From Clostridia bacterium (GTDB lineage: Bacteria; Bacillota; Clostridia; Saccharofermentanales; UBA5734), in NCBI GenBank assembly GCA_040772685.1, contig JAXGXQ010000001.1, forward strand, positions 449,930-513,929: a stretch of 64,000 bases of DNA, given 5' to 3'. This document shows positions 8,577-61,573 of this stretch, in pieces (within the stretch, counting starts at the first letter, position 1; each line of letters opens with the position of its first letter). The notes under the pieces are model-generated. The model did no database searches, was not told where the DNA came from, and was given only the letters and a program-made list of their open reading frames with translations. The position numbers were made by a program, and so were the translations under genes.

Positions 8577-8675
8577 GTTTTAAATGATCCTCTTATTCTT
8601 TACCGCCTTCCAGAATTTGCAGGCCAGGCGAATAAACATTTCAGGTGCAATTTCAAATTTTCGTGACTAAAAAGA

Positions 8676-9002
8676 CTATTTTTCTTTTTGTTTGTCGATG
8701 TCTTTTAGGCTGCCGCTTTTATCTAAACGTTCCAGCACCAGCTTGTAACCGTCGGCACCGTACTCAAGCGAGCGGTTAACCCTGCTGATAGTAGCAGTAC
8801 TGACGCCTGTTGCCTCACAAATTTCGGTATAGGTGCTGCCGCGGCTCAGCATAACTGCTACATGCAAGCGCTGCGCCAGGGACTTAAGTTCTGCGATTGT
8901 GCAGATATCTTCAAAGAACGCATAGCATTCCGTATGGTTTTGCAGTGAAAGGATAGCTTCAAACAATAAATCTGTAGCCTGGTCCTTTAGTTTATCATTC
9001 AT
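8676..9002 (-). CDS. YerC/YecD-family TrpR-like small DNA-binding protein
   Basis: LFEAILSLQN..CYAFFEDICTIAELKSLAQRLHVA..L..G.TY.EI...TGVSTATISRVNR is the family signature. A GAGGTGGG RBS precedes the internal ATG at 9002. Confidence 0.8.
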   Translation of the reverse strand: MNDKLKDQATDLLFEAILSLQNHTECYAFFEDICTIAELKSLAQRLHVAVMLSRGSTYTEICEATGVSTATISRVNRSLEYGADGYKLVLERLDKSGSLKDIDKQKEK

Positions 9003-9139
9003 TCTGCCCACCTCTGCTTCGCCCGGTTTTCCGAATGCAGCGCATCCGTTAACAGCCTGTTTCACACGCTAAAATGATAACGTATGAACTCCGTTAAAAC
9101 AAGTAAACAGACGGCGGCCTCCGTTTTCAAATCTGCTGT

Positions 9140-41490: not shown

Positions 41491-41609
41491 CTGAATCCTC
41501 CCCGAATTTGTTTGTACTGTTCATTTTAGCACGAAACAAGCGACGGTTTGTATCGCTTCGCTGATTGCTATATCATTATCTGGATATAAAGACGCCTTTT
41601 GGAGGATAT

Positions 41610-43658
41610 ATGCCGCTTGACGGAATTTCTACACGCTGCCTTTCGGCTGAACTCGACGTTGCTTTAAAAGACGCGCGGGTTGATCGGATTTACCAGCCGG
41701 ACAAGTTCGACATTATTATAAATATGCGCCAGGATAGGGAAAACCTGAAGTTGCTGCTTTCGGCCAACCCTTCTTTGCCGCGCCTGCACCTGACTACAGA
41801 AACCAGGGAGAACCCGGCTTTGCCGCCAATGTTCTGTATGCTGCTGCGCAAGCATCTGCAGGGAGCGCGCGTACTTTCTGTGAGCACACCCGGCTCAGAG
41901 CGTATTATTGAGCTGCGCTTTCAGACTCAAAACGAACTGGGAGACAAGGTTGAGAAAACCCTGGTCGCTGAGCTGATGGGCCGCCACAGCAATATTATCT
42001 TTTTAAATGAGGACCGTCGCATTCACGACGCTATCGTGCACGTTGATGAATCGATCAGCCGTGTGCGCGAAGTAATGCCGGCCAGGGTTTATATCAGCCC
42101 GCCGGACCAGGGAAAGCGCAGTATCGAAGCCGCAGCTGCAATGCTTGCCCAGCTGCCTGTCTCAGCTGCAGAAGCCTCCGATCTATTGCCCTTTTTCCCG
42201 CCTGAACTGCATGAACGTGGGGTCGAGAAGGCTCTGCTCGAGCTGATGGCAGGTTTCTCACCGGCTCTTTGCCATGAAGTTGCTTTCCAGGCTGGCATTG
42301 ACGGCCGCAAACCGCTAAATCGTCTGACTGACGCCGAAATGCGCCTCTTGCTTTTGGCTCTGCAACAATTAATACGCACTGTGCTGACGGGCAACTTCCG
42401 GCCCAGTGTTTTCTTTCGCGATGCCGAGCAGAAAATCCCGGTGGATTTCCACGCCTTAGCTTTGAGCGACTTCGCTTTTCACCGAAAAATGCCAAACCTC
42501 TCAGCTGCCATGGACCTTTACTACACCGAGCGGCACTTACAGAATGCCCTGGCCCAGAGCCGACAGGCACTGGCCCGGCAGGTTAACCAGCAGTTGGAGC
42601 AGACACGCAAGCGTCTGCTGATTCATGAAACTGATCTGCGTGAGAGCCAGCAGATGGATGAATACCGCCGGGCCGGTGACTTGATTTTATCTTTGATGCA
42701 TGAAATCGAGGCCGGAGCCGACAGTTTGACTCGCAGCGCCGCTGAAAGCCCTGACGGCCTGCCGCTTGAGGTTAAGCTTGACCCCACACGCAGCGCGGCC
42801 CAAAACGCGCAACGTTATTATCGCCGTTACACCAAAGCCCGTGCCAGGGCCGAAATGAGCGAGCGTCTGCTGAATGCCGACCGTGCGGAAATGGAATGGT
42901 TGGAATCGCTGGAAAACGCTGTAGGCGCAGCGGAGAATCTTGGAGACCTTAAGGCTCTGCGCGACGAGATCAGCGAAGTTGGCCTGCGCCCAGCCAGTCC
43001 GTTTGGCCGCGAAGCTGAGACAAATTATTCAGATTTTGCTGCTGGCCAGGCAAACGGCAAAACAAGGGGTAAAAACGGACAAGAAACAACAGCAGGAGTC
43101 AAAGTTCAGGAGCCGGGTAAGCCCGGTAGCCGTAAGAAAAAAGCTGCTGCTCAAGCCAAACAGCGACAAATAGAGCTAAGCCGGGCTTCAGCCAAAGGCA
43201 AAGGTAAAAATAAAGCCAAGGGCAAAGGGGAGAAATCGCCTGCCGCTCTGCCGCCGCGTAAATATACCAGTTCAGACGGCTTCGCCATTTTGGTTGGCCG
43301 TAACAACCTGCAAAACGACCAGTTAACGCTCAAACAAGCGCGCAAGGATGACATCTGGCTGCATGTACAGAAAATGCCGGGCACTCACGTGATCATCAGC
43401 AGCGGCGGCCGCGAGGTGCCAGACAGCACTTTGCTGGAAGCTGCTGAAACAGCCGCTTACTTCTCGCGAGCGGCAGTTGGCGGCGGCTCGGCTGCGAAAG
43501 TCGCGGTAGATTACTGCCCGGTTGCACATGTGCGCAAACCTGCCGGCGCCCGCCCAGGCAAGGTTGTTTATGATCGTTATCAAACAATTATCGTTGAACC
43601 AAAGGATCCGGCAAGGTTGCTGCATACTCAGCCTGCTGGCGAAGAATCTTCTCTTTAA
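41610..43658 (+). CDS. rqcH: NFACT-family ribosome quality-control protein (RqcH / FbpA-like)
   Basis: MPLDGISTRCLSAELD...RIYQPDKFDIII N-terminus, a coiled-coil middle and a C-terminal NFACT-R block (DIWLHVQKMPGTHVII). A GGAGG RBS precedes the ATG at 41610. Confidence 0.85.
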   Translation: MPLDGISTRCLSAELDVALKDARVDRIYQPDKFDIIINMRQDRENLKLLLSANPSLPRLHLTTETRENPALPPMFCMLLRKHLQGARVLSVSTPGSERIIELRFQTQNELGDKVEKTLVAELMGRHSNIIFLNEDRRIHDAIVHVDESISRVREVMPARVYISPPDQGKRSIEAAAAMLAQLPVSAAEASDLLPFFPPELHERGVEKALLELMAGFSPALCHEVAFQAGIDGRKPLNRLTDAEMRLLLLALQQLIRTVLTGNFRPSVFFRDAEQKIPVDFHALALSDFAFHRKMPNLSAAMDLYYTERHLQNALAQSRQALARQVNQQLEQTRKRLLIHETDLRESQQMDEYRRAGDLILSLMHEIEAGADSLTRSAAESPDGLPLEVKLDPTRSAAQNAQRYYRRYTKARARAEMSERLLNADRAEMEWLESLENAVGAAENLGDLKALRDEISEVGLRPASPFGREAETNYSDFAAGQANGKTRGKNGQETTAGVKVQEPGKPGSRKKKAAAQAKQRQIELSRASAKGKGKNKAKGKGEKSPAALPPRKYTSSDGFAILVGRNNLQNDQLTLKQARKDDIWLHVQKMPGTHVIISSGGREVPDSTLLEAAETAAYFSRAAVGGGSAAKVAVDYCPVAHVRKPAGARPGKVVYDRYQTIIVEPKDPARLLHTQPAGEESSL

Positions 43659-44183
43659 AGTCTGATTCTTCCAACGAACGGATACAGCCGCAGTATTTTT
43701 GGCGGTATAGTCCGTCTGTGCGCGCCTGGTTCTGCCCTTCACGGAAGCCAGGGCGGAAATCCCGGTAAAGAACTTAACGCCGTATTTAGCTGCTGCCTTC
43801 TCCCCTGTTTCGCGGATCATTTCGTGATCTTGATATGGGCTGACCAATAATGTCGTTGTAAAAACAGGGATCTTATTTTCAGCAGCAACACTGGCAGCTT
43901 GCTCCAGACGCAGTTGATAACACTGCCGGCAGCGAATCGGCACCGGTTCATCGGTAGCCAGCCAGGGCACTTCATCATAGGCCGGGTCGACAATTACGGG
44001 AAAACCCAGTAGTTCGGCAAGCTGCAGCAAGTTGTCGCGCCTGCGGGTCCACTCGATAAGCGGATGAATATTTGGATTATAAAAATAACCTTGCAGCACT
44101 TCGCCCTCGGCCAGTAAAGTCCGGGCAGGATACTCGGCACATGGTCCGCAGCAGGCATGCAACAGGATAGTCGGTTTTGTCAT
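43588..44183 (-). pseudogene. queH: epoxyqueuosine reductase QueH (DUF208), apparent 1-nt frameshift
   Basis: The N-terminus LLHACCGPCAEYP and the RCRQCYQLRLE motif are intact. After KYGVKFF the conserved C-terminus YRDFRPGFREGQNQARTDGLYRQKYCGCIRSLEE continues in the +1 frame, behind a TTT run at 43767-43769. That frame stops at 43588. Confidence 0.75.
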
Positions 44184-46785: not shown

Positions 46786-48246
46786 CTACTCAGCTTGTTT
46801 GCCGGCTGTTTTTGCCAACTGATTGAGAATGGAGGCGGCAGCAGCCAGAAAAATCAGATAATAAGGTGTTGTATAAGGCATAGTATTACCAAACAAGGCA
46901 GAAACAAAATAAGCAACTATTGTGCCCGCCAGAACGATGCCCTCAACACCCAGCTGCAGGCGGCTATACCAGAAGCGCTTGAACAAAACAGCCAGAGCGC
47001 CAAGATAGAACAATAGTGCCGGTATGCCCAGGCTGGCAGCCAGCTGGATAAGTTCATTGTGGGGCCGGTCTATATTCACATTAACAAGCAGATAGCGGGC
47101 GCCCAGATTATCAGGCCCATAGCCAAACCAGGGTTTTTCAGCGATAAAACGAACACCGTTGGTCCAGAGAACCCAACGTCCGGAACCGGCTCTGCCTGAT
47201 TCTTCGGCACGGCGCAGAATCAGGCTGAAATCACGGAAAAGACGCATTAAGTCAGCGCCCAGAACATTAGTATAAATATTCATCAACAATGAAACCAGCA
47301 GGAATAAGCCGCTGACCAGCAGCAGACGTTTCAGCTGATCAGGCTGCAGCCGGCGCAGGCCGATACCAACCGCTATCAGGCCGCAGACAACAGCCAGATA
47401 CGGCCCTAAAGACTGATCCTGCACTAAAGCGGCTGTCTGCAATAAAAAAGCCGCTAGATACAGGCCTCGATGCTGACGCTTTAATTCCGTTAAGTACAAA
47501 AGCAAAGCTGACATGATAGTCAGACAAAGGTAATAACCATAGTGATTGGAATTATAGAAAATACCTGTTCGAGCCCCGATACCGAGGCGCTGGTTTAGCG
47601 GCTCATAGTTAAGCAGCACTAATACAGCCATTAACGAGGAAACCGCTGTCAGCAGACGCAGCAGACGTTTAAAATCAGGCCAGTTTCTCAGCGCCAGGGC
47701 GCTTAAAAAAACTCCGCCATACATCAGGTAGGTGCGCAAGCCCTCGCGGCGATACTGATCGCCATACCAGGAAAGTAAACGGTTATCAGAAAAGAAAAAA
47801 GACAATACGCTCCAGCCAAGCAGCAGAGCAAGGCTCAGTTCAAAATAATGCGTTTTGAACCAGGCGCCTAGATGCAGCTGCTTGTGTTGAATCTGCCTGA
47901 AACCTTTAGCAAGCACAACTATACTCATCAACCAGCTTAATAAACCTGCCTGCTGCAGTATCTCTTCCCAGAAAAAGCTGCGTGAAAGATGGTTAAGCAT
48001 TAAGTTCAATTCAGTATTCGCCGGCAAAGCTATACTCCTGAGCATCACGATCAGGGGCCCAGCCAGCCAATAAAAGAGCGGCAGCTGCCGGGCTATATCA
48101 AGCGAGCGCGCTGGTATATAATCCAACAATTCCGGAACAGTTCGAATAGCCAGCAGTTCTGTTCTGACAGTACTCGCCCGCGCAAGAAAAAACACTGTTT
48201 TCGCACGTAGATTCAAACCGTTGCCCAGGCTGGCCTCGCCGCTCAT
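46786..48246 (-). CDS. O-antigen ligase / Wzy_C-family polytopic membrane protein
   Basis: 486 aa with at least 10 hydrophobic helices. It contains NSNHYGYYL and the C-terminal FGYGPDNLG......RPHNELIQLAASLGIPALLFY block typical of Wzy_C proteins. Its start overlaps the upstream stop (ATGA). Confidence 0.75.
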   Translation of the reverse strand: MSGEASLGNGLNLRAKTVFFLARASTVRTELLAIRTVPELLDYIPARSLDIARQLPLFYWLAGPLIVMLRSIALPANTELNLMLNHLSRSFFWEEILQQAGLLSWLMSIVVLAKGFRQIQHKQLHLGAWFKTHYFELSLALLLGWSVLSFFFSDNRLLSWYGDQYRREGLRTYLMYGGVFLSALALRNWPDFKRLLRLLTAVSSLMAVLVLLNYEPLNQRLGIGARTGIFYNSNHYGYYLCLTIMSALLLYLTELKRQHRGLYLAAFLLQTAALVQDQSLGPYLAVVCGLIAVGIGLRRLQPDQLKRLLLVSGLFLLVSLLMNIYTNVLGADLMRLFRDFSLILRRAEESGRAGSGRWVLWTNGVRFIAEKPWFGYGPDNLGARYLLVNVNIDRPHNELIQLAASLGIPALLFYLGALAVLFKRFWYSRLQLGVEGIVLAGTIVAYFVSALFGNTMPYTTPYYLIFLAAAASILNQLAKTAGKQAE

Positions 48247-49523
48247 ATAAATGTATCGCTGCTATCGGGGTTGAGCACGCTGTTGAGAAAATCGCGAGCA
48301 AACAGCAGATTAACTTCTTCCAGGCGCAACAGCACACGATTGCCGCGGTTTTTGGCCAGGACCAGCTCGCGCGCTGTAATTACCTTACCGTCAGGCGCGG
48401 CCAGCTCGGCCGGGTCCTGTTTGTTTTCCAGGGCAAGTTCAAGAGTCGGGCGATCGTAATACATAACCTGGTGGCTGAAATCCTGGTGATCCAGCAAGTA
48501 AAAGCCGGGGAACTCCAGCAATAAAACCGCCGGTGCCAACAGGCAGCAATTGACCAGTTGCATTAACAAGGGCTGGTACAAAGCGCGTTTGCGCTCCTGG
48601 CCAACCGTCTGGCGGCCAATCAGGTTAATCATGGCCCACTGCCGGAAATTCAACCTGACCTGCTCCGGCACAATTGCCCAGACTTGCAGGGCGTCAGCAC
48701 TGGCGGCGGCCGGGTCCGCTTTCGGCTTGGCCTGATCAGCCGCGGGCGGCATGCCAAACTGCTGCAGGATAACCTGATTCAGCGGGAGAAACTTCTGGTC
48801 GCCGCGAAACTCGTTGTAAATCGCTGTAATCAGCCGGGCCTTTTCAGCGGTTTCGGCCAGTTCCAGGCACTGGCTGAATAGTTCCGTTTCAGCGGCGGTA
48901 AGCTCGGGCGGGCACAACTGAAAAAATTCCAGCAGGAGGAGTGTCCCGAAGCGGCTGGCGGCATAAACGCTCAGCTCCGCCAGCTTGCTGCTTAAAGACC
49001 ATGGCCCGTTTACGCCGCTGAGCGGCTTTTGCTGTTCGTCAAGCAGAAACTGGGCTGTTTGGCGCGGCAGGCTTTCCTCGCAGCCAAAACGCCCGCACAG
49101 CGCCAGAAACGGCGGTGTTTCGCCTTTTGCTGTCAGGGCGGTATTCAGCCGGGCCATAGCTTCGGCTAATTCAACGTGGTAGAAGTGCTGCTGATAAAAC
49201 GCCCAGCCGGTTTGAGCCAGCGAAAGTGTCGCCCGGCGTTCAATAATCTGCTGAATGCGCTGCTGAGCCTGTTCAGTAGCAGTTAAGGCTGAAAGCGGCG
49301 CTTCAATTACCAGCAGCAGGCCAAACAGATCATTAAGCTGGCGCCTGGGCAAGCGGGCCACCAGTAAATCAAAGCCGTCACCGGTGGCGGTGGTTTCGAT
49401 CAGCTGCAGCAGCTCCTGCAGCCTGGTTTCATCAAGCCGGACAGAAAGCTCTTCCGGTAAGGGCTGCTGGCGAATAACCTGCTGGCGAACGTGATGAAGT
49501 TTTGAGTCGGACACATGCAGCAT
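48243..49523 (-). CDS. hypothetical soluble protein (426 aa), no motif recognised
   Basis: A long ORF with no TM segments. Its start abuts the stop of the 988-aa gene (TAAATG at 49521-49526). Confidence 0.6.
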   Translation of the reverse strand: MLHVSDSKLHHVRQQVIRQQPLPEELSVRLDETRLQELLQLIETTATGDGFDLLVARLPRRQLNDLFGLLLVIEAPLSALTATEQAQQRIQQIIERRATLSLAQTGWAFYQQHFYHVELAEAMARLNTALTAKGETPPFLALCGRFGCEESLPRQTAQFLLDEQQKPLSGVNGPWSLSSKLAELSVYAASRFGTLLLLEFFQLCPPELTAAETELFSQCLELAETAEKARLITAIYNEFRGDQKFLPLNQVILQQFGMPPAADQAKPKADPAAASADALQVWAIVPEQVRLNFRQWAMINLIGRQTVGQERKRALYQPLLMQLVNCCLLAPAVLLLEFPGFYLLDHQDFSHQVMYYDRPTLELALENKQDPAELAAPDGKVITARELVLAKNRGNRVLLRLEEVNLLFARDFLNSVLNPDSSDTFI

Positions 49524-52490
49524 TTACTGTGGTCTCCTGACAGGTGCCAGTGCCTGGGGCAGGCCGTCAACAGCGTCACCCAGTTCAGTAGTCGCGTGTG
49601 AGAGGCGCTTGAGCACATCGGCAATATTATGGTCGAATTCACTAACCATCTGGTTAAGCTCAGTGCGAATCTCAGTATTGAAGCTGGTTACAGAATCACC
49701 CAGAGTTGAGCTCAGGGCCTGAATATCGCTGTTGATCTGCTGCGCGAACAGGCTCATGCTGCGTGATTCTTCGCCGAGAATCTCAACCAGATTACGGACA
49801 TCATTGGCAAAGATGCTGTTTTGCTCATTCAGTGAGGCATGAACGCTGTTCACCAGGTCTTCCGTGATGCCGGTGAAACCGAGCGTAAGCTGTTCAATTC
49901 TGGTCGACAGTTCGTCGGAGAAGGTTGTAATCTGACCGGCAAGGTCGCTGATCTGCTGTTGATTCAGCTGATGCGAGGTTTCCATCTGTTCCTGCAGATC
50001 TCTGGCATTTTGTAAAGAGCTGGAGGTGATTTCAACCAGGCTTGTCTGCAGCGTGGTCATGGTCGCCGCCAGTTCGCCGATCGAGTCGGATAACCCAGAT
50101 TCACTGCCAGAGAAAATAGCGCTCATCTTATCAGCCGAGGTACTCATTGTCGCGGCGGAAGCCCGCAGCTCAGTCAGGTCCGTGAGCATGGTCGTGCGGG
50201 TTTCCACGAAGGCGTTGATCGCGTCCTTCATGCCTGCCTCAACCTCAACCACCTGTTCACGCTGCAGCTCGAAGGCGTCCTGGACTTTATCGGCATAAGC
50301 CTGAGCCGCTACCAGCACGTCCGCGGAAGCGATCAGGCGGTTGGATACCGGTTCCAGATATTTATCCAGATAACTGCCCAGGTTTTTGGCCACGTCAGCA
50401 GTCATGGAATCAAGGCTGCTTTGCTGGTAAGCAGCGATTTTATTCAGGGTAGCGTCCTGAGCCTGCTGTAATTGTGTAATAGCGGCCAGCTGCTGGGTCT
50501 GGAAAGCGGCCTGCAAGCGTTCCTGCAGCTCGTTGCTGGCGCTGGCCAGCGTTTCCTGGCTGGTTTGCAAAGAACGTACCAGATCCTCCTGACGCAGCTG
50601 GAAAGCCTGTAAAAGCTCAGCCTGGCGGCTCTGCATGGTGTTGGCAAGCTCAACCTGCTGCGTTTGCAGGGAACGGGCGAATTCATCCTGCCGGTTGCGC
50701 AGGTCGGCGCTGAGCGCGCTCTGCTGCCCCAGCAGCTCTGTGCTCACAGTTTTAGTTAAGTCGCTGGTTGAAGCGGCAAGTTCCTGCTGGCTTGTGGTCA
50801 GCAGACTGGTAAGGCTGCTCTGCTGCTCAGCCAGAGCGGTGCTCCACTTCTGCCAGGAATCGTCAAAGCGGGCCTGTTGACCAAGCAAAGTTTCGCCAGT
50901 GGCCGCCGACTGGCTGGCAAGGGTTGTCAGAATTTTATTTTGGATGCTGGTCAGCTCTTGCGTTACCTGCGTTTGCTGACCGGCCAGGGATTCTGTCAGC
51001 AACTCCAGTTTTTGCTCCAGTGTGGTTGCCAGCTTTTCGGTCAGGCTAAAGGTAGATGCCGCCAGTTCCGCTTGGCGATCGGTCAGCTGAGTCTGAAGCA
51101 GAGTCTGATTGGCGCTTAACCCGGCAGCCAGCTCGGCCTGTTGGTTGTTAACAGCGGCGAGCAGACCGGCCTGAGCAGTCTGCAGTTCATTGTTCAGTTT
51201 TTCCTGAGCGGCAACCAGGCTGGAAACAGTCAAAGCCAGGCCGCCCTGCCATTCCGACCAGGCCTGCTGATATTTTTCGGTCAGGGCGCTGCCGCTGGCC
51301 GTGTTCGCCGCGATTAAGCCCTTCATAGCCTGCTCGAAATCGCTCAGTAACCCTTTAACAGATTCCTGCTGTTCGTTGCTGAGTGTACGGTAGCTATATT
51401 GCTGGCCTTCGGAGAGCGCGGTTAAAGTTTCTTTCTGATTCTCAGTCATCATCGCCAGCGTCTGTTGCTGCTGGTCGCGAATCTGCTCCAGCAGCAGCGA
51501 TTGCACAGCGCCAAGCTGTTTAAAAGACATTTCCTGCTGCTGCAGCAAAGTTGAAGTAACTGTCTCATACTGGTTCTGCAGAAATTTGGCGCCTTCCGCC
51601 TGCTGGTACTCCAGCGCGATTAAACGGTCGCCCAGAGTGTTCAGGGAGCTGCTCATCTGCTTTTCCAGCTGAATGGCCAGCCTGGCCAGCGCTTCCGAGC
51701 TGCGCTGCAGCGGCGGGCCGATAGTAGCGGCAAGCAGATGCTTAACAGAATCAGTAATAGCCGTAGTAATTTCGCCGGCAGCCAGGCGCTCAACACGCTG
51801 GGTCAGCTGCCGGACTGAAGCCAGCATGGCCTCGTCATGGTCTGTATAACGGTTCAGAACTATCGCGGTTTCACCGGCCTGGGTGTAAACCGGCACCTTG
51901 CGCGTGAGCGTGTGCACCAGCTTGCGGTGGGCGCCGGCCAGGCTCTGCTGCAAGCGGCCGCGCTGCTCATAAAGAATAAACAGGGAAACCAGGCCGATAG
52001 CCAAGGGCATAAGCGCCAGAGCGCCGACCAGCGGCGCCAGGCTGAAGCTGCCGGCAGCAATAAAAGCCAGCAGCAAAGCCAGAACAAATAAGCCCAAACC
52101 GATAAGCCCGCTGAAGACCGGGCCATTATTACTGACAGCTGCCTGGGCCGCGGGCGCGCAGCTGGCCGGGTAAGGCAGGCGTGATTCCGGTTCCGGAATC
52201 CAGTTGCCGCGAAAAACATCCTGACTGTCCTGAGCTAAGAGTTTCACAGCACCGCCCAGTTCCGGCAGTTCCTGATTCACCTTGGCTTCCACCCGGGGCA
52301 GGTTATCGATACTGCAGCCCTTGAGAGTATCAAGCGAGGCGGCCAGCGCGTGCCAGCGTTCAGCTTCCTGCTCCACCTGAGCACGGTTACGCCGATACAG
52401 AAAGAGCGGGAATGCCGCACTGGCCAGAATGGCTAAGATAGAAACAACCAGCCACCAGATGCTTGCAAAGGTCAGAATCTCCCCGATCAT
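49524..52490 (-). CDS. membrane-anchored giant helical/coiled-coil protein (988 aa), unknown function
   Basis: TM1 spans residues about 5-30, followed by a loop of about 95 aa and a TM hairpin at about 125-175. The remaining roughly 800 aa are Q/L/A/T/S-rich with recurring Q(Q/R)xEL-type motifs. Confidence 0.65.
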   Translation of the reverse strand: MIGEILTFASIWWLVVSILAILASAAFPLFLYRRNRAQVEQEAERWHALAASLDTLKGCSIDNLPRVEAKVNQELPELGGAVKLLAQDSQDVFRGNWIPEPESRLPYPASCAPAAQAAVSNNGPVFSGLIGLGLFVLALLLAFIAAGSFSLAPLVGALALMPLAIGLVSLFILYEQRGRLQQSLAGAHRKLVHTLTRKVPVYTQAGETAIVLNRYTDHDEAMLASVRQLTQRVERLAAGEITTAITDSVKHLLAATIGPPLQRSSEALARLAIQLEKQMSSSLNTLGDRLIALEYQQAEGAKFLQNQYETVTSTLLQQQEMSFKQLGAVQSLLLEQIRDQQQQTLAMMTENQKETLTALSEGQQYSYRTLSNEQQESVKGLLSDFEQAMKGLIAANTASGSALTEKYQQAWSEWQGGLALTVSSLVAAQEKLNNELQTAQAGLLAAVNNQQAELAAGLSANQTLLQTQLTDRQAELAASTFSLTEKLATTLEQKLELLTESLAGQQTQVTQELTSIQNKILTTLASQSAATGETLLGQQARFDDSWQKWSTALAEQQSSLTSLLTTSQQELAASTSDLTKTVSTELLGQQSALSADLRNRQDEFARSLQTQQVELANTMQSRQAELLQAFQLRQEDLVRSLQTSQETLASASNELQERLQAAFQTQQLAAITQLQQAQDATLNKIAAYQQSSLDSMTADVAKNLGSYLDKYLEPVSNRLIASADVLVAAQAYADKVQDAFELQREQVVEVEAGMKDAINAFVETRTTMLTDLTELRASAATMSTSADKMSAIFSGSESGLSDSIGELAATMTTLQTSLVEITSSSLQNARDLQEQMETSHQLNQQQISDLAGQITTFSDELSTRIEQLTLGFTGITEDLVNSVHASLNEQNSIFANDVRNLVEILGEESRSMSLFAQQINSDIQALSSTLGDSVTSFNTEIRTELNQMVSEFDHNIADVLKRLSHATTELGDAVDGLPQALAPVRRPQ

Positions 52491-52922
52491 GAATTGCCCT
52501 CCCCATCTGCAGTTAAGTACTAATGCCGCGCCGCGACAGCGAATTCAGAAGATATTATTATTTTAACGGAAACCAGACTGGAATCCAGACGGTATAACAA
52601 ATGATACCGCAAATTAACCTGCTTGTCAGCTGAAACCGCAGCTAAAGCAGCAGCGTTTTAGGCAATGCTTATTACTGGCAGCAGAGGGCAATTCGCACCG
52701 CAACCTTCCTGCTGCCATTGAGTACCTAAACCCGTAAAGTCAATTAACAACCAGAATCAATCTGCTCGTTACCTTGTTCATTTATAAGTCATAATATTTA
52801 CATGAAGCCCTAACAAGTTGAGCAATGATTCTTTACTGGACAGATGCAAGTCAATATTAGTAAACTAAGCCCAATTAACCGTGCTATTAATCAAAAAATC
52901 ATCAAATTGTAGCAGTTGATAC

Positions 52923-53098: not shown

Positions 53099-53470
53099 AT
53101 GAAAAGAAAATCCAAAAAGGGTTTTACCCTAATTGAACTAATCGTCGTCGTCGCGATCATCGCCATTCTGGCAGCTATCGCAATTCCCAGATTCGCGAAC
53201 ATGCGGGCAAATTCTCAAGTAAGAGCTGAGGGTGCAACAGCGGCCCAGATCGTGACTGCCGCAAGAGTACAGGAAGCTGAAAAAGGTGCAAAAGTAAATG
53301 GTGATGCAGCTACAGCAATTTTAGACGAATATATGGATGCTCCAACTGGGTTTACAATCACTGGTGGTGCCGAAGATCCTTATGAAGTCAGTTGGACAAC
53401 ATCTGCTGCAGGTTACAAATCCTCACAGAAGTATACTGAGAATGTAGAGTTTAATCCAGCTAAATCATAA
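53099..53470 (+). CDS. type IV pilin / pseudopilin with a class III (prepilin) signal
   Basis: MKRKSKKG|FTLIELIVVVAIIAILAAIAIPRF is a canonical prepilin peptidase site followed by the hydrophobic alpha1 helix. 123 aa, ending ...NPAKS. An ACGGAGG RBS is present. Confidence 0.9.
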   Translation: MKRKSKKGFTLIELIVVVAIIAILAAIAIPRFANMRANSQVRAEGATAAQIVTAARVQEAEKGAKVNGDAATAILDEYMDAPTGFTITGGAEDPYEVSWTTSAAGYKSSQKYTENVEFNPAKS

Positions 53471-53590: not shown

Positions 53591-53674
53591 TATTGTTGAA
53601 TATATTAGAGTGTCGTTATATTTGGTGGTGTCAACGATCTTTCGCACTTTAGTTGTTCGCTTGGTTTCTGGCGG

Positions 53675-54007
53675 TCAGCCAACTGCTAGATCCGCTGTCA
53701 CCTCTGCTTCCAATTCCATAGCTTCTAGGTGTTTCATGTTCAGGTAATGCTTCGAACCCCAAAGCGAATCTTCCATGTAACGAAGCCTGGCACAGACCAG
53801 CATTAGGGCGGAATAGGCATCAGGGAAAGAGCCTACGACCCTGGTTCGTCGCCGGATTTCCCGGTTAAGCCGTTCGATGGCATTATTGCTGCGGATTTTC
53901 AGCCAGTGTTCACGAGGAAAAGCCATGTAGGTCAAGGTTTCAGCGATAGAATCTTCAACCTTTTTGGCTGCTTCTTTAAGCTTCATTTCCCGGAGTTTGA
54001 CAACAAC
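53675..54007 (-). pseudogene. IS256-family (mutator-type) transposase, C-terminal fragment
   Basis: KLREMKLKEAAKKVEDSIAETLTYMAFPREHWLKIRSNNAIERLNREIRRRTRVVGSFP is the conserved IS256 C-terminal block. The first residues of the track ORF are encoded by the IS21 end. Confidence 0.85.
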
Positions 54008-54172
54008 TGGAAACCACGCTCGCTTAAGGCCATCGCCGCACATAAATAAGGCCATCGCCGCGCACTAAGAAGGCCACTCGCGCGCTCGATGAAGGTCAGC
54101 CTGTAAATAATGTCAACCTTCAGTAGAATTTTATTGCCACCAGAGGTGGTAATTTTTTTATGGAGGTTTGAG

Positions 54173-55618
54173 ATGAGTTCAAACTATTTGTACATCGTGC
54201 GTTCTGTTTTCAATGGCATCAGTCAGAGGAAAGCGGCAAAATCACATGGTGTCTCCCGCGACACCGTATCGATTCTAGTTAACTATGCCCATAGTCGAGG
54301 GTGGATGAATCTTGAAGATCTGGAATCGTGTACCGAAGCGGATTTTGAGGCTGCCATGCAACGTAAGCCGGGTTTGGGAGCCAATCGAGACGTCTCGTAT
54401 GCGATGCCAGACTATGACTATGTTCACGCTGAACTAGGTAAGGAACATGTCACGCTCACCTTGTTATGGGAGGAGTATGTGGCAGATTGTATGGCAACTG
54501 GCAAACGTTATTACGGAGAAACCCAGTTCAGGCGGTACTACCATAGGCATGCCGGAATGTCGAAGGCGACTATTCGTTTAACGCATAAGCCGGGATTGTC
54601 TGTTCAGGTTGACTGGGCTGGCTCTCGTATCGCTTTCTATGACGAAGATGTGGGGGAAATGGCCCAAGCGTCCTTGTTTGTGGGTATTTTGCCGTGCAGT
54701 TCTCTTATTTATGTAGAATCGTTCCGGCATGAGAAAATGCCAAGTTGGATTTCCGCCCATAATAACATGTTCCAGTATTTCGGTGGAGTGCCAAGGACGG
54801 TCGTCACCGACAATCTTAAAGTAGGTGTAGACAAGGCTATCTTCTATGAGCCAAGCATCAATCGAACCTATCAAGAAATGGCTGAGCATTATGGGACGGT
54901 TATTCTCCCGACCAGAATCGCCAAACCGCGGAATAAAGGCGCTGTAGAAAATGCGGTCAAAATCGCATCACATAGGATTCTGGGCAAGTTGAGAAATCAA
55001 TCATTTCATACATTCTGTGAGCTGAAAGCTCACGTGGCAGACGCTCTGGAAGCCGTTAACTCGGCTCTGTTAACAGGGAAAAGCGTAAGTCGTTGGAGTT
55101 CTTTCCATGCTGAGGAGAAAGACTACCTGCTCACGCTTCCCCCAGAGCCCTTTATCTTGTCGGAGTGGACGACAGCCAAAATTCAACCAAATTGCCACGT
55201 CGCCTTCCAGGGCCATTACTATTCCGTGCCATTCGAATATCTAGGTGAAACAGCCGAGATTCGAGCCACGCAAGGAACAGTAGAGATATTTTACCATCAT
55301 CAACGTGTTGCTTCACATAAGCGGGAATGGGGACAGAAGCAGTACATCACCGTCACAGACCACATGCCCCCAAACAAGCTCTTCTTCGCTGACTGGAATG
55401 CGGATCGCTTCATTCAATGGGCTGCACAAATCGGGCCGTCGTGTAAGAAAGTCATCCGCCTGAACCTGGACGCCGCAGTGCACGAGCAACATGCTTACCG
55501 ATCCTGCTTTGGGATATTAGGACTCAAGGATAAATTCTCTTCAAAACGTTTGGAACAAGCGTGTCAGCTCATGTTGAGCCGTAGTTATTCGCCGCAATAC
55601 ATGTGTTTGGCAAGATAG
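54173..55618 (+). pseudogene. istA: IS21 IstA transposase (copy 1), interrupted after about 476 codons
   Basis: It has an HTH N-terminus and a DDE region (VQVDWAG, VVTDNLK). The reading frame is broken at 55601/55602 by the nested IS and resumes after 58093 (SQVKRILERKEDL...). Confidence 0.85.
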
Positions 55619-55730
55619 AAACCATCCATTGCGGAAGCTAAGAAACCAGCCAGCTGTAGAATAAAGACTCCACTGCCAACCACCCGCTCAGGTATCCTTT
55701 TAGTATTGCAAACTGAAAGGATGAACGGAG

Positions 55731-57251
55731 ATGTTAACAGTGGAGCAGATTTATGATATCAGAGAAATGTACTACAAAGAAAGTAGGAGCATCCGCGAAA
55801 TCTCGCGAATTACTCAGCGTGACCGCGGCACCATTAAACGTTATGTCGAACAAAATAGCTTCAGTCTTGATGCTCCCGTCCGCCAGCGACGCAGCAGAAA
55901 AACGGATGAGTATCGAGCGATGATTAAACAATGGCTGATCGATGACGAAAGAGCGCCGCGCAAGCAGCGCCATACAGCCAAAAAGGTCTACGACCGTCTG
56001 GTCGCAGAGCAGCAGAGAAAAGGACTTGTACTGGATATCTCCGACCGGAGCATCCGTACCCTGGTGGCAGAGATAAAACGCGAATTAGCTCAGCAGGAAG
56101 CAGCTTCACTGCCGTTGTTGCATCCTGCCGGAGAAGCGCAGGGCGACTTTGGCACAACCGTTTTTTACGAACGCGGTATTAAATACGAAGGTTATCACCT
56201 CTGTCTGACCTTGCCGCATTCAGATGCCAAGTATACCCAGCTTTTCAAGGGTCAGGACTTTGAGTGTCTGGCTCGCGGCTTAATCGAAATCTTCACACAT
56301 ATCGGCGGCGTGCCCACGGCAATCCGTTTCGATAACATGTCAACAGCGGTAAAGGCAATTAAGGCCCATGGCGGGCGCGAGCTGACAGACAATTTCCTGC
56401 GGTTGCAGTGTCATTTCGGGTTCGAGAGCAACTTTTGCAATCCGGCAGCCGGGCATGAGAAGGGATCAGTGGAGAACTTTGTCGGCTATAGTCGCCGCAA
56501 CCTGTTTGTTCCTGTCCCTGAGACTAATGACCTTGCCGCATACAATCAGGATCTGCTCCGGCGCTGTGATGCCCGTCTTGAAGAAGAGCATTACAAACTT
56601 GAACGTTTGGTGAAGGACCTGTTTACTGAAGACCAAGCCAGGCTTCTGCCGCTGCCGGCCTATCCCTTTGATGCCTGCCGCTATGTGCCGGCCCGGACTG
56701 ATAATTATGGCATGGCCAAGTACCAGACCAACCGCTACTCTACAGCCGGTCACCTCAGGCGCAGCAATATAACTTTGAAGGTTAACGCATATACGGTGAC
56801 GGTGCTGGACGAACAGATGCGAGTGATTGTCAGGCATCCTCGCATGTATGGACAAAAGAAAGAATCCATGATCTGGACCCCTTACCTGGAAGTACTGGCC
56901 AAGCGCCCGATGGCAATTAAGTACAGCGGTTTTTATGAGAATCTGCCCAGGCCACTGAAACGCTTTATGGATGACTGCGACCTTAGCGGCAAACAGCAGA
57001 TTCTGCAATTACTCGCCCGAGAGAGCAGCGACGGTGATCTTGATACCCCTTTATTTCACCTGACTGAGGCTGTTGGCCTGAACCCAACAGACGCTGACGG
57101 CCTGATCGCGACATACGCCTTTGTTACCAATAAACCGGGTCAGCCTTTGAAAGAATCCGTTCCTGAGCTATTGCCGGAAACACCCGGAATACAGTCTGGA
57201 TCTGGGCGTATATGGGCAACTCATGGGAGGGTTCGCATGTCAAAACAATGA
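55731..57251 (+). CDS. istA: IS21 IstA transposase (copy 2), apparently full length
   Basis: A 506-aa ORF with an HTH N-terminus and a DDE core (AQGDFG, IRFDNMSTAV, GHEKGSVEN). Confidence 0.85.
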   Translation: MLTVEQIYDIREMYYKESRSIREISRITQRDRGTIKRYVEQNSFSLDAPVRQRRSRKTDEYRAMIKQWLIDDERAPRKQRHTAKKVYDRLVAEQQRKGLVLDISDRSIRTLVAEIKRELAQQEAASLPLLHPAGEAQGDFGTTVFYERGIKYEGYHLCLTLPHSDAKYTQLFKGQDFECLARGLIEIFTHIGGVPTAIRFDNMSTAVKAIKAHGGRELTDNFLRLQCHFGFESNFCNPAAGHEKGSVENFVGYSRRNLFVPVPETNDLAAYNQDLLRRCDARLEEEHYKLERLVKDLFTEDQARLLPLPAYPFDACRYVPARTDNYGMAKYQTNRYSTAGHLRRSNITLKVNAYTVTVLDEQMRVIVRHPRMYGQKKESMIWTPYLEVLAKRPMAIKYSGFYENLPRPLKRFMDDCDLSGKQQILQLLARESSDGDLDTPLFHLTEAVGLNPTDADGLIATYAFVTNKPGQPLKESVPELLPETPGIQSGSGRIWATHGRVRMSKQ

Positions 57252-57962
57252 TTCTTGAGCTCTGCCGCCAGCTGCGTCTGGGTAACCATATCGCCGAGAG
57301 CTATGAAGATATTGAAGCAAAGACGAATGAAGAGTTTCTCATAAAGATTCTAACGGAAGCTGTTGCCCGCCGTGATACGGAACGACGCAAACGCTATATT
57401 CAGCAAGCCGGCTTTGATCTGATGAAAGGTTACGACAGCTTTGATTTCTCAGATATTGTCCTACCAGAGAGCCTCTCGCCAGCTAGCCTGCGTGCCTGTG
57501 AGTTTGTAGCCAACCGGCAGAACCTTATTTTGTACGGACGGCCAGGAACCGGCAAGACTCATCTGGCAATTACTTGTAGAATTGAAGCCTGCAAGCGCGA
57601 TTTCAAAGTTATCTACTACAAAGACCAGCCGACTGGTGAATCTGCTGTCACAAGCCAAGGGCGAAAACGAACCGAAAGCAAGTTCTGGCGCAAACTGCAG
57701 CAAGCCAACCTGCTGATTTTGGATGAGTGGGGCTACATCCCATTTGAGAGGGTCGGTACACAGTTACTGTTCGAGGCCATATCTGACTGTTATGAGAAAA
57801 CGGAGTGTGATAATTACGACCAACTTACCCTTTGACGAATGGAACACGATCTTCTATGACCAAAAACTGACGGCAGCCATTTTGGATCGTTTGATCCACC
57901 ATGGTTTGCTCCTGATGCACGATGGCCAGAGCTACCGCCTGCAGAATTCTCAGATGCAATAG
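57248..57962 (+). pseudogene. istB: IS21 IstB helper ATPase (copy 2), frameshifted
   Basis: The start overlaps the istA stop (ATGA). Walker A is GRPGTGKTH and Walker B is LLILDEWGY. The frame changes near 57800 (CYEK | SVIITTNLPFDEWNTIF). Confidence 0.8.
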
Positions 57963-58227
57963 CGGAGCACGAATGATTGGAATGAAGCGAGTGGCGGTAT
58001 TAATTTCCGCAGTGGTTGGTTTTTAGCTTCCATAGTGGTAGGTTTTTAATTTCCACGCTGGTTGGTTTTCTACTTGCCAAACACAGCAATACAGTCAAGT
58101 AAAACGCATTCTTGAGCGAAAAGAAGATTTGACGGCAGCAGAGACGGATATTAGCCAGCAGGAAAAACCGAAAGGCTTCCGCCGTGGCGCTGACTACTAT
58201 GGAAAAGAAAATTATGAGGATACGGTC

Positions 58228-58970
58228 ATGTTGAGAAATGAGACAGTACAACAACTGAGAGCATTGAGGCTCTCCGGATTTGCAGATGCATTGGAAGAAC
58301 AATACGCATCCATATCCTTTGAGGAATTAACTTTTGACGAGCGTCTTGGGCTCCTGGTCGATCGGGAAGTCTCAAAACGCAAGAGCAGCAAAATCGAGCG
58401 ATTCATTCGGCAGGCACGATTTCAGAACTCGGAAGCCTGTGTGGAAAACATCCATTACCATTCAGGACGCAAATTGGATCGAAAACTTATTCTTTGAGCT
58501 GGCCAGCTGTCAGTATATCCACCATGCTGGGAACGTCAACATCTTTGGTGCGACAGGTGCTGGGAAGAGCTATATCGGTCAGGCCTTGGGGCAGGCTGCA
58601 TGCCGCATGGGGATGGGCGCTCGATACATTCAATTGCCGGATCTGTTGGAAGAGTTGAAAATAGCCAGACAACACGGAACCGAGCGATGGACAAGGAAAC
58701 GGAAAGAATTTACTAACATTCCATTGCTTATTCTAGACGAATTCTTGCTGTTTAAAAATCGATGACTTGGACTGCCAGCATCTTCTGCAACTTATCGATC
58801 GGCGGAGTTCCAAAGGTCAACGATCGTCATCACACAGTACAACCCGGATGAGTGGATTGCACAGATGCCGATACAAGTGGCAGCGGGAAGCCATAACCGA
58901 CCGTTTGACGGCACAAGCATATTCGATCCTTATTGAAAGCAAGGAATCGATGCGAAACATCGGTAGCTAG
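58228..58970 (+). pseudogene. istB: IS21 IstB helper ATPase (copy 1), multiple frameshifts
   Basis: MLRNETVQQLRALRLSGFADALEEQ start, then Walker A GATGAGKSY and Walker B LLILDEF. The C-terminus lies in three different frames (breaks near 58490 and 58765). Confidence 0.8.
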
Positions 58971-59078
58971 GACATTTTTAGACTAAATCACTTTTATTGA
59001 GCGCGCGGGTGGCCTTTTTCATCCGCGCGCTTGGCCTTTTTAGTGCGAAGGACTGGCCTTTTTCATGCGCGGTTTCCA

Positions 59079-59950
59079 AACAACCGCTTTAGCTTTTTCC
59101 TGAGCAGCATCTTTGTCCTCTTGAGCGTGGATCGCCTTTAGCATCGCAGCCACATCTTTCATCTTTCCTCGGGGCACCACCGTGAAGACATTGCGATAAA
59201 AATGGATATAACACCGTTGGTATTTGGCATCTGGAAATACTGAGTTTATCGCATCCACAAGCCCTAAGCACTTATCGCCAATGAAAAGGCGTGTTCCGGT
59301 CAGACCCCGTTCTTTCAGGCTAACCAGGAAGTTTCGCCAGCTTTCCTTGTCTTCTTTCATGCCTTCAGCAGCACCGATGACTTCGCGCTGACCATCTGCG
59401 TTAACAGCCATTGCCACCAGGATTGCGACGTTTTCGAAACTGCCACCCCAGTTGCGTTTGAGATAAATGCCGTCCAGATAAACGTAAGGATAAGCCACAA
59501 GCAGAGCCCTGGCGCCATTCATCGATCTTGACGTAGACCTTCTGGTTTAGTTTGCTAACCGTTCCAGCGCTCACTTTCGTACCCCAAAGTGCTTCTGTGA
59601 TATCTTCCACTCGACGCACAGATACGCCGGCCAGGTACATCTCTACAAGCGCCTCTTCCACACTGATTTCACGCCGTTTATAGCGTTCAATGATCGCTGT
59701 CTCAAATGTCAGAGTCGCAGTTTCGGCACTTTCAGCTTAACCTCACCAGCTTTGGTTAAAAGCTTTCGTTTGTAATGCCGGCGCGAGTATCCAGACGGTC
59801 AGCCTTGCGCTCATAACGGGTCGCATTCGTCAGTCGATTTGCTTCTTCGTCCAGGAGCGCATTCAATGTGTCTTCTACACTTTGTCGCACCATTTCTCCG
59901 AGTTCTTGCTTTATGAGTCCCTCATTAAGCTGTATAATTTCTTTAGACAT
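59079..59950 (-). pseudogene. IS256-family transposase, N-terminal and central fragments with frameshifts
   Basis: MSKEIIQLNEGLIKQELGEMVRQ (RBS CAAGGAGA) is followed by VEMYLAGVSVRRVEDITEALWG and YPYVYLDGIYLKRNWGG...FPDAKYQRCYIHFYRN. These blocks lie in different frames. Confidence 0.85.
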
Positions 59951-60063
59951 GGCTCGTTCTCCTTGCTCGGTTTTATGTTTTTGTTTTCCACTTAACATTT
60001 TAACCAAGCGAACGGGTCATGTCCTTATTTTTCCGATTGTGCGAAACTTATGATACGTCATCT

Positions 60064-60148
60064 CTTGACGTAGACCTTCTGGTTAAGTTTGCTGACCGTC
60101 CAGCGCTCACTTTTGTGCCCCAAAGCGCCTCTGCGATATCTTCTACAT
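60064..60148. repeat. orphan fragment of about 85 bp from a second IS256-family copy
   Basis: It matches 59527-59610 closely by eye (cttgacgtagaccttctggtt.agtttgct.accgt...ccccaaag.gc.tctg.gatatcttc). Confidence 0.75.
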
Positions 60149-60205: not shown

Positions 60206-61573
60206 CTACTCTAGGTGGTTACTAATAATGTAGTTCTCCACTCTATCTGCTTTTGCTTTTTCTTTTTTACTCCTATTAAAAGGATTTCGCATGAATTTTT
60301 TAAGCACAAACCCAATTGCTACAGCAAATGCTGCGTCAATCGCATACACATAATCGCCCACCATCTTACCGAATGCTGTATCTTTTACCCAGATGAAAAA
60401 CGACATGGCAAAATTCCATTGTTTATCACCAAAGAAAAACTGTAATACGATAAACACGATAAAAACAAGAGTAAGCAACACAGCAGCTATAGGCGCAAAA
60501 TAGTAATCGAAGAAATATCTAGGCAATATTTGTTTCTCAGCCAAATTGCAAATTTGCTCACGCTTTTTATCAAGCTCTTTTGATTTTTCTTCTATATCAT
60601 CTTGTTTTTGCTGGAGAAGCTTTTCTCGTGCTATCACATCTGATTGTAATTTCTGAACTTGCTGCTCCTTCTCAGCAGAAACTTCAGCGATGCTTACAAT
60701 TTGAAGACCTTTTTCCTTTAGTTGAGCTTCAAGATAGTTTTGACTGAATCGCTGTGTCTGCTTATAAAGATCATCATCTGTTTTACAGCGTTGAAGTATT
60801 TTTTGAAATTCATCGTCGTATACAGCAGAAACGAGCCCCTCTTGCGTCTCTATATCTTCGGTAATTGAGCTAATTCCAGAAATAATTATATTGGCCTTTT
60901 CTGGTGTGATTTGCTTGGAGGTTGCCCTAATATTTATAAAGCTAACAAAACTATCATAATCATTGGCAGAACGACCACACAGCTTTATCAATATCAAGAA
61001 TAGTTGGCTCGGATATACTACAACTGGATATAGGATCTCCCTTCTAGTCATATCCCAATAACGAAGAGCTTTGTCAGACGAAATTAAGAATATATCCTTA
61101 TCTTCATCATATTTCTCGCGTAATAGCTCAACATATCTTATTACAGTCGCATCATGACTATATCTAAGAGAATAAGATTCGTCCTCAGCTGTATAGAAAG
61201 GTTTCAGCTCAAGCTTTTTATTTTTTATAGATGATGAGTAAGCGTTTCTTTTTTCTTTGAATTCAGGTGAGTCATATATAAATTTTGGAATCTTTTCATC
61301 ATCTGTAATTCCATATTGCGATACTAAACTGTGATATAAGGTACGAATGTGAAAAATGAAATACTTCAAAGAAAGTGCGCTGTGGCTCTGATGCCAACTT
61401 TCATAAAACGCAAAGATATTATAATCTGTTAATTGTTCATAAGCGCCAGCAAAAACTTCGCCTCTTGGAAATTGTGCGATTTGCGATACATAGTAATCGA
61501 TCGTATCAAAAAATTCTTTTTTTGTAGAATGTGAAATGATAATTTTAACTTTTGCCTGCTTACACTTGCTCAA
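60206..61573 (-). CDS. hypothetical protein: soluble N-region + coiled-coil + C-terminal TM helices (possibly the surviving 3' part of a larger decayed gene)
   Basis: A 455-aa ORF in AT-rich DNA, with a TTG start and no convincing RBS. It has a coiled-coil (AEKEQQVQKLQSDVIAREKLLQQKQDDIEEKSKELDKKREQ) followed by 2-3 hydrophobic helices. The frame stays open 16 codons further upstream. Confidence 0.5.
   Translation of the reverse strand: MSKCKQAKVKIIISHSTKKEFFDTIDYYVSQIAQFPRGEVFAGAYEQLTDYNIFAFYESWHQSHSALSLKYFIFHIRTLYHSLVSQYGITDDEKIPKFIYDSPEFKEKRNAYSSSIKNKKLELKPFYTAEDESYSLRYSHDATVIRYVELLREKYDEDKDIFLISSDKALRYWDMTRREILYPVVVYPSQLFLILIKLCGRSANDYDSFVSFINIRATSKQITPEKANIIISGISSITEDIETQEGLVSAVYDDEFQKILQRCKTDDDLYKQTQRFSQNYLEAQLKEKGLQIVSIAEVSAEKEQQVQKLQSDVIAREKLLQQKQDDIEEKSKELDKKREQICNLAEKQILPRYFFDYYFAPIAAVLLTLVFIVFIVLQFFFGDKQWNFAMSFFIWVKDTAFGKMVGDYVYAIDAAFAVAIGFVLKKFMRNPFNRSKKEKAKADRVENYIISNHLE

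Follow-up and report, generated by a model that had tools for sequence, protein, structure and literature searches.

A predicted stator-fold membrane protein with a long hendecad tail, encoded beside type IV pilus genes in Clostridia

The known 5:2 motors, MotAB, ExbBD, TolQR, GldLM, AglRQS and ZorAB, are built from ring and axle subunits, and almost all of them occur in double-membrane bacteria. In the Zorya type I system of Escherichia coli (ZorA5B2; PDB 8QYD and 8QYK), the ring protein ZorA continues into a cytoplasmic tail, about 70 nm long, in which five chains form a right-handed coiled coil; the length and integrity of this tail are essential, and its tip recruits soluble effectors (PMC11946911). 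ExbB-family proteins also occur without ExbD in Gram-positive bacteria, which a review of the 5:2 motors treats as an unresolved matter (PMC9389320). The gene considered here encodes a protein of 988 amino acids (aa) and occupies 49524..52490 (minus strand, stop codon included) of a 64,000-nucleotide (nt) stretch of a Clostridia bacterium genome (assembly GCA_040772685.1, contig JAXGXQ010000001.1, positions 449,930 to 513,929), hereafter the window. In our reading, whose functional side is inferred, its product is a variant of the stator fold that has not been described before, does without an axle and is associated with type IV pili of Gram-positive bacteria. The family to which it belongs consists of a conserved membrane base, a hendecad shaft of variable length and a conserved distal module; it is accompanied by a co-translated partner and, in its long-tailed clade, lies beside pilus genes.

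The stretch 49524-52490 is a single 988-codon open reading frame (ORF) on the minus strand with an ATG start, which a Shine-Dalgarno sequence (GGGGAGGG, 52497-52504) precedes by 6 nt; a plus-strand reading is ruled out by the many stops in its translation. The gene is real, with homologues of 63-78% identity and a gene order kept in other genomes. Only residues 1-33 and 122-176 exceed the hydropathy threshold (Kyte-Doolittle, 19-residue windows, cut-off 1.6), and AlphaFold2 places the helices of the membrane part at 11-54, 122-146 and 153-198. The first transmembrane helix (TM1, residues ~9-32, 52395..52466) lies within the first of these model helices and is followed directly by the basic residues RRNR (33-36). 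Seven basic residues (R177, R179, H188, R189, K190, R197 and K198) follow TM3 within 177-198, and residues 1-8 and the six-residue TM2-TM3 turn (148-153) have none; by the positive-inside rule, the N-terminus is therefore outside and the tail inside. Between TM1 and the TM2-TM3 hairpin (residues 122-176, 51963..52127, with G131 and an invariant P162) is a cytoplasmic loop of about 90 residues, the membrane-proximal domain (33-121, 52128..52394; model helices 61-74 and 76-93), which carries the most conserved loop motifs. A neck (177-261, 51708..51962) comes after the hairpin, made of the helix that continues from TM3 and the next helix, and it contains an invariant P200, a Y/H218-D219 motif and P259; all of these elements are on the minus strand. 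Hydropathy, charges and model helices agree on a topology of the ExbB type, in which an outside N-terminus leads into TM1, the cytoplasmic domain and the TM2-TM3 hairpin, and the C-terminus lies inside. The original prediction, made from the letters of the stretch, had drawn this picture: a 988-aa ORF, TM1 at residues 5-30 and a hairpin at 125-175, the whole remainder on one side of the membrane, and hence a MotA/ExbB/TolQ-like topology of ion-driven stators. These points are borne out, the topology being of the ExbB/TolQ/ZorA type, with the ORF on the minus strand and everything after residue 176 placed inside by the pattern of basic residues.

The predicted structure of the base suggests that the resemblance to stators goes beyond topology. 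A monomer model of residues 1-262, built on a 49-sequence alignment, reached a predicted local distance difference test (pLDDT) score of 90.3 and a predicted template-modelling (pTM) score of 0.74, with all five models at 86.5 or above. When it was compared by Foldseek with 350,542 PDB chains, all of its first 13 matches and about 40 of its first 50 were chains of TolQ, ZorA or ExbB, in the order TolQ 8odt_A (expectation value, E, 0.008; probability 1.00), ZorA 8qyk_A, 8qyh_A and 8qyd_A, further TolQ chains, and ExbB 5sv0, 5sv1 and 5zfp. The alignments to stator chains cover 205-279 columns at probabilities of 0.84-1.00, and template-modelling scores range from 0.27 to 0.52, those of the best matches from 0.38, reaching 0.46 by query length and 0.52 by target length (5sv1_A, 0.46/0.52). 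Since every match has an E above 0.001 and helical bundles of de novo design turn up further down, we consider an ExbB/TolQ/ZorA fold for residues 1-260 probable, not proven. The structural check suggested with the original prediction leans towards a stator fold, through a monomer model whose best PDB matches, individually weak, are TolQ, ZorA and ExbB and which speaks to the fold of one subunit, not to ring formation.

Sequence comparison gave no corresponding signal. MotA_ExbB (PF01618) did not match the 988-aa protein in Pfam at E≤0.1, nor did it rank with the 25 Pfam families that 51 relatives matched most frequently at E≤0.01, and a scan of the 988-aa protein against NCBIfam returned no match. 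A profile of residues 1-262 (49 sequences) retrieved only noise from all PDB chain sequences, a set that does contain ZorA, TolQ and ExbB chains (best E 0.04, a G-protein-coupled receptor fusion), and hhalign gave the same profile a probability of 0.4% against E. coli TolQ plus ExbB.

When residues 1-230 were compared exhaustively by phmmer with 1.84 billion proteins, 56 cluster representatives matched at E≤1e-3, nearly all of which align end to end over the N-terminal module (N-module); a word-indexed search with the N-module, alone or as a 49-sequence profile, recovered only a frameshifted fragment (P0001). The named sources of the family are metagenome-assembled genomes (MAGs) of Clostridia, Eubacteriales or Saccharofermentanales, together with metagenomes, and it was seen nowhere else; 50,697 phage records and 72,556 plasmid records held no relatives. 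Most conserved residues of the N-module are cytoplasmic: N63-L64, D88-S89, W97, P99, P101, R197, the invariant P200 and Y/H218-D219. Within the membrane, conservation is limited to G131 and a Ser/Thr four residues later in TM2 and to the invariant P162 in TM3. The TM2 G-xxx-S/T motif, with its Ser/Thr at position 135, is present in 76% of the family, and TM3 has no Ser/Thr conserved across it. At the equivalent place TolQ and ExbB have G-L-F-G-T. The family thus resembles the ExbB and TolQ proteins of E. coli (PDB 5SV0/5SV1 and 8ODT; PF01618) in its N-out/C-in topology of three transmembrane helices, in being matched best by them in structure, in the conserved proline of its last transmembrane helix and, for most members, in the TM2 motif. 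It differs in that their conserved TM2/TM3 sequence (GLFGTVWGI, APGIAEAL.ATAIGL.AAIPAV) is absent, in the sequence searches just described, in having no ExbD/TolR partner and, for the 988-aa protein, in an added tail of some 730 residues. With the ExbB proteins of Gram-positive bacteria that lack ExbD it shares the occurrence, in bacteria with one membrane, of a stator-type A subunit that has no B subunit beside it; they can be identified as ExbB-family proteins by sequence and have no long tail, whereas the likeness of the 988-aa family is seen only by predicted structure. One outlier, P0045 (1689 aa, on a 3.1-Mb NCBI contig), matches N-module residues 58-188 with its own residues 1402-1536 (E 1.7e-6, in four stretches), which could be a fusion or a chance match.

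The helical tail extends for about 810 residues beyond the hairpin, with one proline between residues 261 and 977 and a composition of 14% Leu, 12% Gln, 12% Ala, 10% Ser and 10% Thr. Fourier analysis of the whole tail gives a hydrophobic periodicity that peaks at 3.66 residues, with almost no power at 3.50; autocorrelation over residues 420-700 peaks at 11, 22 and 33 residues, and in rows of 11 the core register reads xLxxxLxxLxx, a spacing of 4-3-4. The tail is, in other words, a hendecad coiled coil, with an 11-residue repeat and a period of 3.67. Hendecad geometry gives straight or right-handed bundles, and from the periodicity we infer a right-handed one here. Two parts can be distinguished. 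The shaft (residues 262-700, 50391..51707, minus strand), defined by periodicity, autocorrelation and register, has clean 11- and 33-residue repeats in 420-700 and is the length-variable part; the distal module (701-988, 49527..50390, minus strand), defined by the alignment consensus, is conserved and ends in the motif FDxxLAExxxRLxxTxxEIxDAVxxLPxA. Family members fall into two length classes, 440-640 aa and 770-990 aa, set apart by the repeat insert: both classes have an N-module and a distal module, the latter of about 290 residues, and in long members an extra stretch lies between the two. The repeat region is 20-55% gapped in relatives, whereas neck and distal module align almost free of gaps, with identities among long variants of 45-47% over residues 201-280 and 30-54% over the distal module. 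The distal module found no relative among PDB sequences, the matches being noise of the apolipoprotein type. At 0.15 nm per residue the shaft would be about 65 nm long and the whole tail, extended, about 105 nm; these lengths are arithmetic, not measured.

The family resembles ZorA, which likewise combines three transmembrane helices and a membrane-proximal cytoplasmic domain of matching predicted fold with a very long, proline-poor, cytoplasmic helical tail of non-heptad, right-handed-type periodicity that varies in length among relatives. The tail also gives a misleading signal. The ZorA models of PADLOC match residues 361-985 of the 988-aa protein, with E down to 6e-8, and do so in every family member tested, always within the tail; no ZorA profile match reached the membrane domain. 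The reversed 988-aa sequence scores better than the real one (3.5e-13), and a residue-shuffled tail gives no match; the ZorA matches therefore reflect shared periodic composition, not ancestry, and we have ruled them out as evidence of homology. More generally, these models score any hendecad-type coiled coil, reversed sequences included, and ZorA calls that rest on a tail alone are unreliable. What stands of the tail that the original prediction had likened to ZorA is the architecture, some 730 helix-compatible residues of the hendecad type described for that protein; the model matches, being compositional, add nothing to it.

The 988-aa gene is translationally coupled to the gene that follows it (48243..49523, minus strand), whose start abuts its stop and whose product is a soluble protein of 426 aa. 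This partner has no transmembrane segment, no Pfam, PADLOC or NCBIfam match, and eight close homologues. Partner homologues immediately follow the genes of family members whose identity to the window protein is only 20-30% (at locus L010, E 3e-36; L016, E 7e-60; L006, E 3e-15; L015, E 3e-19 against the L006 partner); the short member at L008 has none. A search of GTDB species representatives with the partner alignment gave one match, on the same contig as L002. The AlphaFold2 model of the partner, predicted from a 9-row alignment, has a pLDDT of 80.4 and shows a helical-repeat body with a small C-terminal beta domain. A soluble protein encoded directly downstream is a further likeness to ZorA, and we considered whether the partner is ZorC. 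We rejected that identity: the model has no Foldseek match in the PDB or a viral structure set and no ZorC chain among its 50 best PDB matches, the partner family profile matches no PDB sequence, and the single EH_Signature match, in the partner homologue P0009 (E 0.019), is below threshold, with its candidate Glu and His not conserved in distant partners.

The gene neighbourhoods connect the long-tailed members with type IV pili, a link that the original prediction did not draw, just as it did not mention the conserved partner. A pilin-type (N_methyl) gene is adjacent to the tail gene at nine of nine long-variant loci: the window, L001-L004, the contig of P0012, L010/L011, L016 and L017. In the window it encodes a type IV pilin of 123 aa (53099..53470, plus strand; Pfam N_methyl, E 4.5e-10, and NCBIfam pilin models) with the prepilin leader MKRKSKKG/FTLIEL and a C-terminal serine. 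It diverges from the 988-aa gene, an arrangement repeated at L001-L004, on the P0012 contig and at L010; at L017, two pilin-like genes lie co-directionally 93 nt upstream of the tail gene. Further pilus genes occupy the same flank at five of the nine loci. L010 is the most complete, with PilB, PilC, PilM, PilN, a PilO-sized gene, DUF7305, minor pilins and pilin leading up to the tail gene and partner. L016 carries DUF7305, and its PilM/N, minor pilins, pilin and an orthologue of the window's Wzy_C gene all diverge from the tail gene, with Wzy_C between it and the pilin; L003 has a faint PilO match, DUF7305 and minor pilins, with two further N_methyl genes upstream of the pilin; on the P0012 contig the partner is followed by a pilin-VWA gene and a Big-domain protein of 1415 aa; and about 8 kb upstream at L001, which is closely related to the window, lies a gene of 582 aa that matches N_methyl weakly. 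The L010, L016, L017 and P0012 loci have different flanks and N-modules 26-31% identical to that of the window. In the L001 sequence (GCA_050948965, a Saccharofermentanales MAG, 1-10600) the tail gene is split into pieces of 196 aa and 783 aa, by a frameshift or an assembly error. At two short-variant loci a gene of the glycosidase-like DUF4015 family is found, directly after the partner at L015 (11287-12801) and 4 kb downstream at L008 (13731-14996), which hints that the short clade is tied to another envelope process.

It is at even odds, a probability of roughly 0.5, that we place the reading we prefer: a ZorA-style architecture put to use in a different machine, in which a membrane ring detects something at the level of the pilus or pilin, or is driven by it, and the tail carries that signal to the partner. 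By analogy with ExbB, TolQ and ZorA, the membrane base would form a ring, probably a pentamer, and the five tails would bundle into a right-handed coiled coil reaching from 65 nm (shaft) to 105 nm (whole tail) into the cytoplasm. The partner would most likely dock on the distal module, because the two genes are translationally coupled and the partner is conserved downstream of short and long members. In the long-tailed clade, the tail protein and its partner belong to the type IV pilus neighbourhood and would presumably serve pilus biology. The mechanism we favour is that the ring links what happens in the membrane, at the level of pilus or pilin, with a partner deep in the cytoplasm, by a signal or torque transmitted along the tail in the manner of ZorA.

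Several observations weigh against this proposal. Sequence-level homology to any stator family was not found by Pfam, PADLOC, profile search of the PDB or hhalign; similarity of residues 1-200 to MotA_ExbB or ZorA, which the original prediction had named beforehand as its test, was not significant in any of the four. The Foldseek E values are 0.008-0.1, with template-modelling scores mostly below 0.5, and all-helical membrane proteins of the same topology can match by convergence. The transmembrane helices of the family have no conserved charged residue, and the 988-aa protein itself has Phe at position 135, and so lacks the TM2 Ser/Thr, where its closest full-length relative (P0010) has Ser. 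No MotB-, ExbD- or ZorB-type neighbour is present at any of 12 loci. Nor did Pfam detect a MotB/ExbD/TolR/OmpA-type gene among the window proteins scanned, which were those up to about 29 kb and from about 39 to 58 kb together with the ORF at 60206-61573; family scans of the operon proteins agree with the original prediction, which had found no MotB/ZorB-like gene in the operon. Three ORFs of 71-76 aa beside relatives were considered as an axle and rejected, two being frameshift fragments of the tail gene or partner and the third having no transmembrane helix, and the 600-nt intergenic region upstream of the 988-aa gene contains no convincing small transmembrane ORF. As to the pilus link, no pilin lies near three short-variant groups (L005-7, L008/9 and L015), so it may hold for one clade only, and ruvCAB synteny is common to several of the long loci, which are from related genomes, so that the nine are not independent. 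An axle gene nearby and the TM2 Ser/Thr are both missing here, and the ring may or may not be ion-driven and rotating.

The strongest competing explanation, which we nevertheless rate as unlikely, is that the protein is a membrane-anchored coiled-coil scaffold or landmark, dimeric or trimeric, whose likeness to stators is only topological and which spaces pilus or envelope parts through its helical-repeat partner with no ring and no ion flow. Every sequence test for stator homology is negative, as a scaffold would have it; the best Foldseek E is 0.008 in a list that includes de novo bundles; no axle gene has been found, and the transmembrane helices of the window protein lack a conserved charged or polar pair; and the partner is predicted to be a helical-repeat protein of the adaptor type. 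Against it, one structural family dominates the Foldseek list in near full-length alignments at probabilities of 0.84-1.0, the last transmembrane helix has an invariant proline and TM2 of most members a G-xxx-S/T motif, and the periodicity of the tail is not that of canonical heptads but the unusual hendecad one reported for ZorA.

At the other extreme, the preferred reading could be pressed into a full 5:2-type, ion-driven rotary motor with a bitopic pilus protein as its axle in place of a MotB/ExbD-type protein: the N-terminal helix of the pilin, which carries a conserved Glu5, or else a PilN/PilO pair. We regard this form as a long shot.

A similarly small chance attaches to a role in defence against phages, in which the locus would be a decayed or new kind of Zorya-like system that pairs a ZorA-like sensor with a ZorC-like partner, its ZorB and nuclease having been lost or being encoded elsewhere. 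The predicted fold and long tail resemble those of ZorA, the PADLOC ZorA models match the tail (E down to 6e-8), the P0009 partner homologue has its weak EH_Signature match, and mobile or defence elements are close at hand, insertion sequence (IS) elements adjoining the window locus and remnants resembling a cyclic-oligonucleotide-based anti-phage signalling system (CBASS) adjoining L001. The model matches fail their reversed-sequence control, however, and neither model nor profile of the partner matches ZorC or anything else in the PDB. No sequence homology to ZorA was detected in the membrane domain of the 988-aa protein, which has no equivalent of the TM2 Thr; family loci contain neither the ZorB axle with its peptidoglycan-binding domain nor a ZorC-like partner or nuclease; Pfam and PADLOC found no ZorB, ZorD or ZorE, and no helicase or nuclease gene follows. 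The gene belongs to the syntenic core genome of a Gram-positive lineage, beside ruvCAB and type IV pilus genes, not to a mobile defence island, and has no relatives in the phage and plasmid records. Zorya is also reported to be under-represented in single-membrane bacteria (PMC11946911).

Least probable is a glycan chain-length regulator or co-polymerase, a ruler of the Wzz or polysaccharide co-polymerase (PCP) kind working with the operon's Wzy_C: the coiled coil is length-variable, Wzy_C is translationally coupled in the window and L001 and adjacent in L016, and the DUF4015 gene adjoins the partner at L015, but PCP coiled coils lie outside the membrane between two transmembrane helices, whereas the positive-inside rule puts this whole tail, which follows TM3, in the cytoplasm, Wzy_C is absent at most related loci (L002-L004, L010, L006, L008), and Pfam gives no Wzz match.

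Methyl-accepting chemotaxis proteins (MCPs) also join a membrane anchor to a long cytoplasmic helical bundle; one family relative is labelled an MCP by its source, and residues 222-247 of the 988-aa protein have a sub-threshold HAMP match (E 0.007, 17.1 bits against a cut-off of 25). Unlike MCPs, the 988-aa protein has no Pfam match to their signalling domain, no chemotaxis genes nearby, and three transmembrane helices with almost nothing outside the cell, so that there is no ligand-binding domain.

The literature searched contained no description of such a protein and no paper joining stator-like proteins with type IV pili or with coiled-coil tails such as this one. If the ZorA-style reading is right, the family would differ from the known 5:2 motors in being seen by predicted structure only, in having a ZorA-like tail with no axle gene, and in lying at the pilus loci of Clostridia, which have a single membrane. 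The stator fold would then be known from one more kind of cellular machine, and there would be a second, independent case of a very long coiled-coil tail carrying information from membrane to cytoplasm. The family would also bear on the role of ExbB-like proteins in Gram-positive bacteria without ExbD (PMC9389320). Were the motor form with a pilus-protein axle true, Gram-positive type IV pili would have a part driven by the proton-motive force, with a rotating tail of about 100 nm acting on, or signalling to, a cytoplasmic partner.

The third gene of the operon encodes a membrane protein of 486 aa from the Wzy_C (O-antigen ligase) family (46786..48246, minus strand; PF04932, E 1.5e-17) and overlaps the partner stop by 4 nt. 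It is probably a pilin O-oligosaccharyltransferase that glycosylates the neighbouring pilin; its orthologue beside the pilin in L016 is 40% identical. Glycosylation of a C-terminal pilin serine by TfpO/PilO-type enzymes is known from Pseudomonas aeruginosa 1244. The Clostridia loci resemble that system in having a Wzy_C-family gene in the tail-gene operon (window) or beside the pilin (L016, 6376-7806) and pilins that end in Ser or Thr: ...NPAKS in the window, ...TTASFS in L016 (5621-6004) and ...TTAATTT in L010 (7205-7612).

Beyond the pilin, a cluster of IS remnants (window 53600-60100) cuts it off from its former upstream genes. The cluster comprises a Mutator-family transposase fragment (53675-54055), a Mu/rve-type transposase (54110-55618), IS21 istA (55731-57251) with a split istB (57212-57962), further IstB-like pieces (58129-58765) and ORF pieces that are transposase-like by eye only (59040-60007). 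At L001, the large minor-pilin-like gene is separated from the pilin by a SAVED/HNH gene, a DncV-like fragment and IS pieces, so that insertions have gathered at this one place in both genomes. The 455-aa ORF at 60206-61573 (minus strand) encodes a Lys/Glu-rich coiled coil with two hydrophobic segments at its C-terminus and has only a weak Rad50 match (E 7e-4).

The remaining surroundings are of a housekeeping kind. Downstream of the operon are ruvC, ruvA, ruvB and queH, then a convergent NFACT/RqcH gene, and the first 30 kb of the window include secA, pheST, mreCD, a PBP2-type penicillin-binding protein and tRNA synthetases. Within that region, at 9140-11733 (minus strand), a 351-aa protein with a TadE-like N-terminus (E 6e-6) is followed by a 513-aa protein with no family match, and the pair may be the remnant of a second, Tad-type pilus system. 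The longest queH ORF (286 aa, 43323-44183, minus strand) overlaps the convergent NFACT/RqcH gene (41565-43658, plus strand) by about 330 nt; the QueH proteins of relatives have 198-221 aa, and the true start of queH is probably internal.

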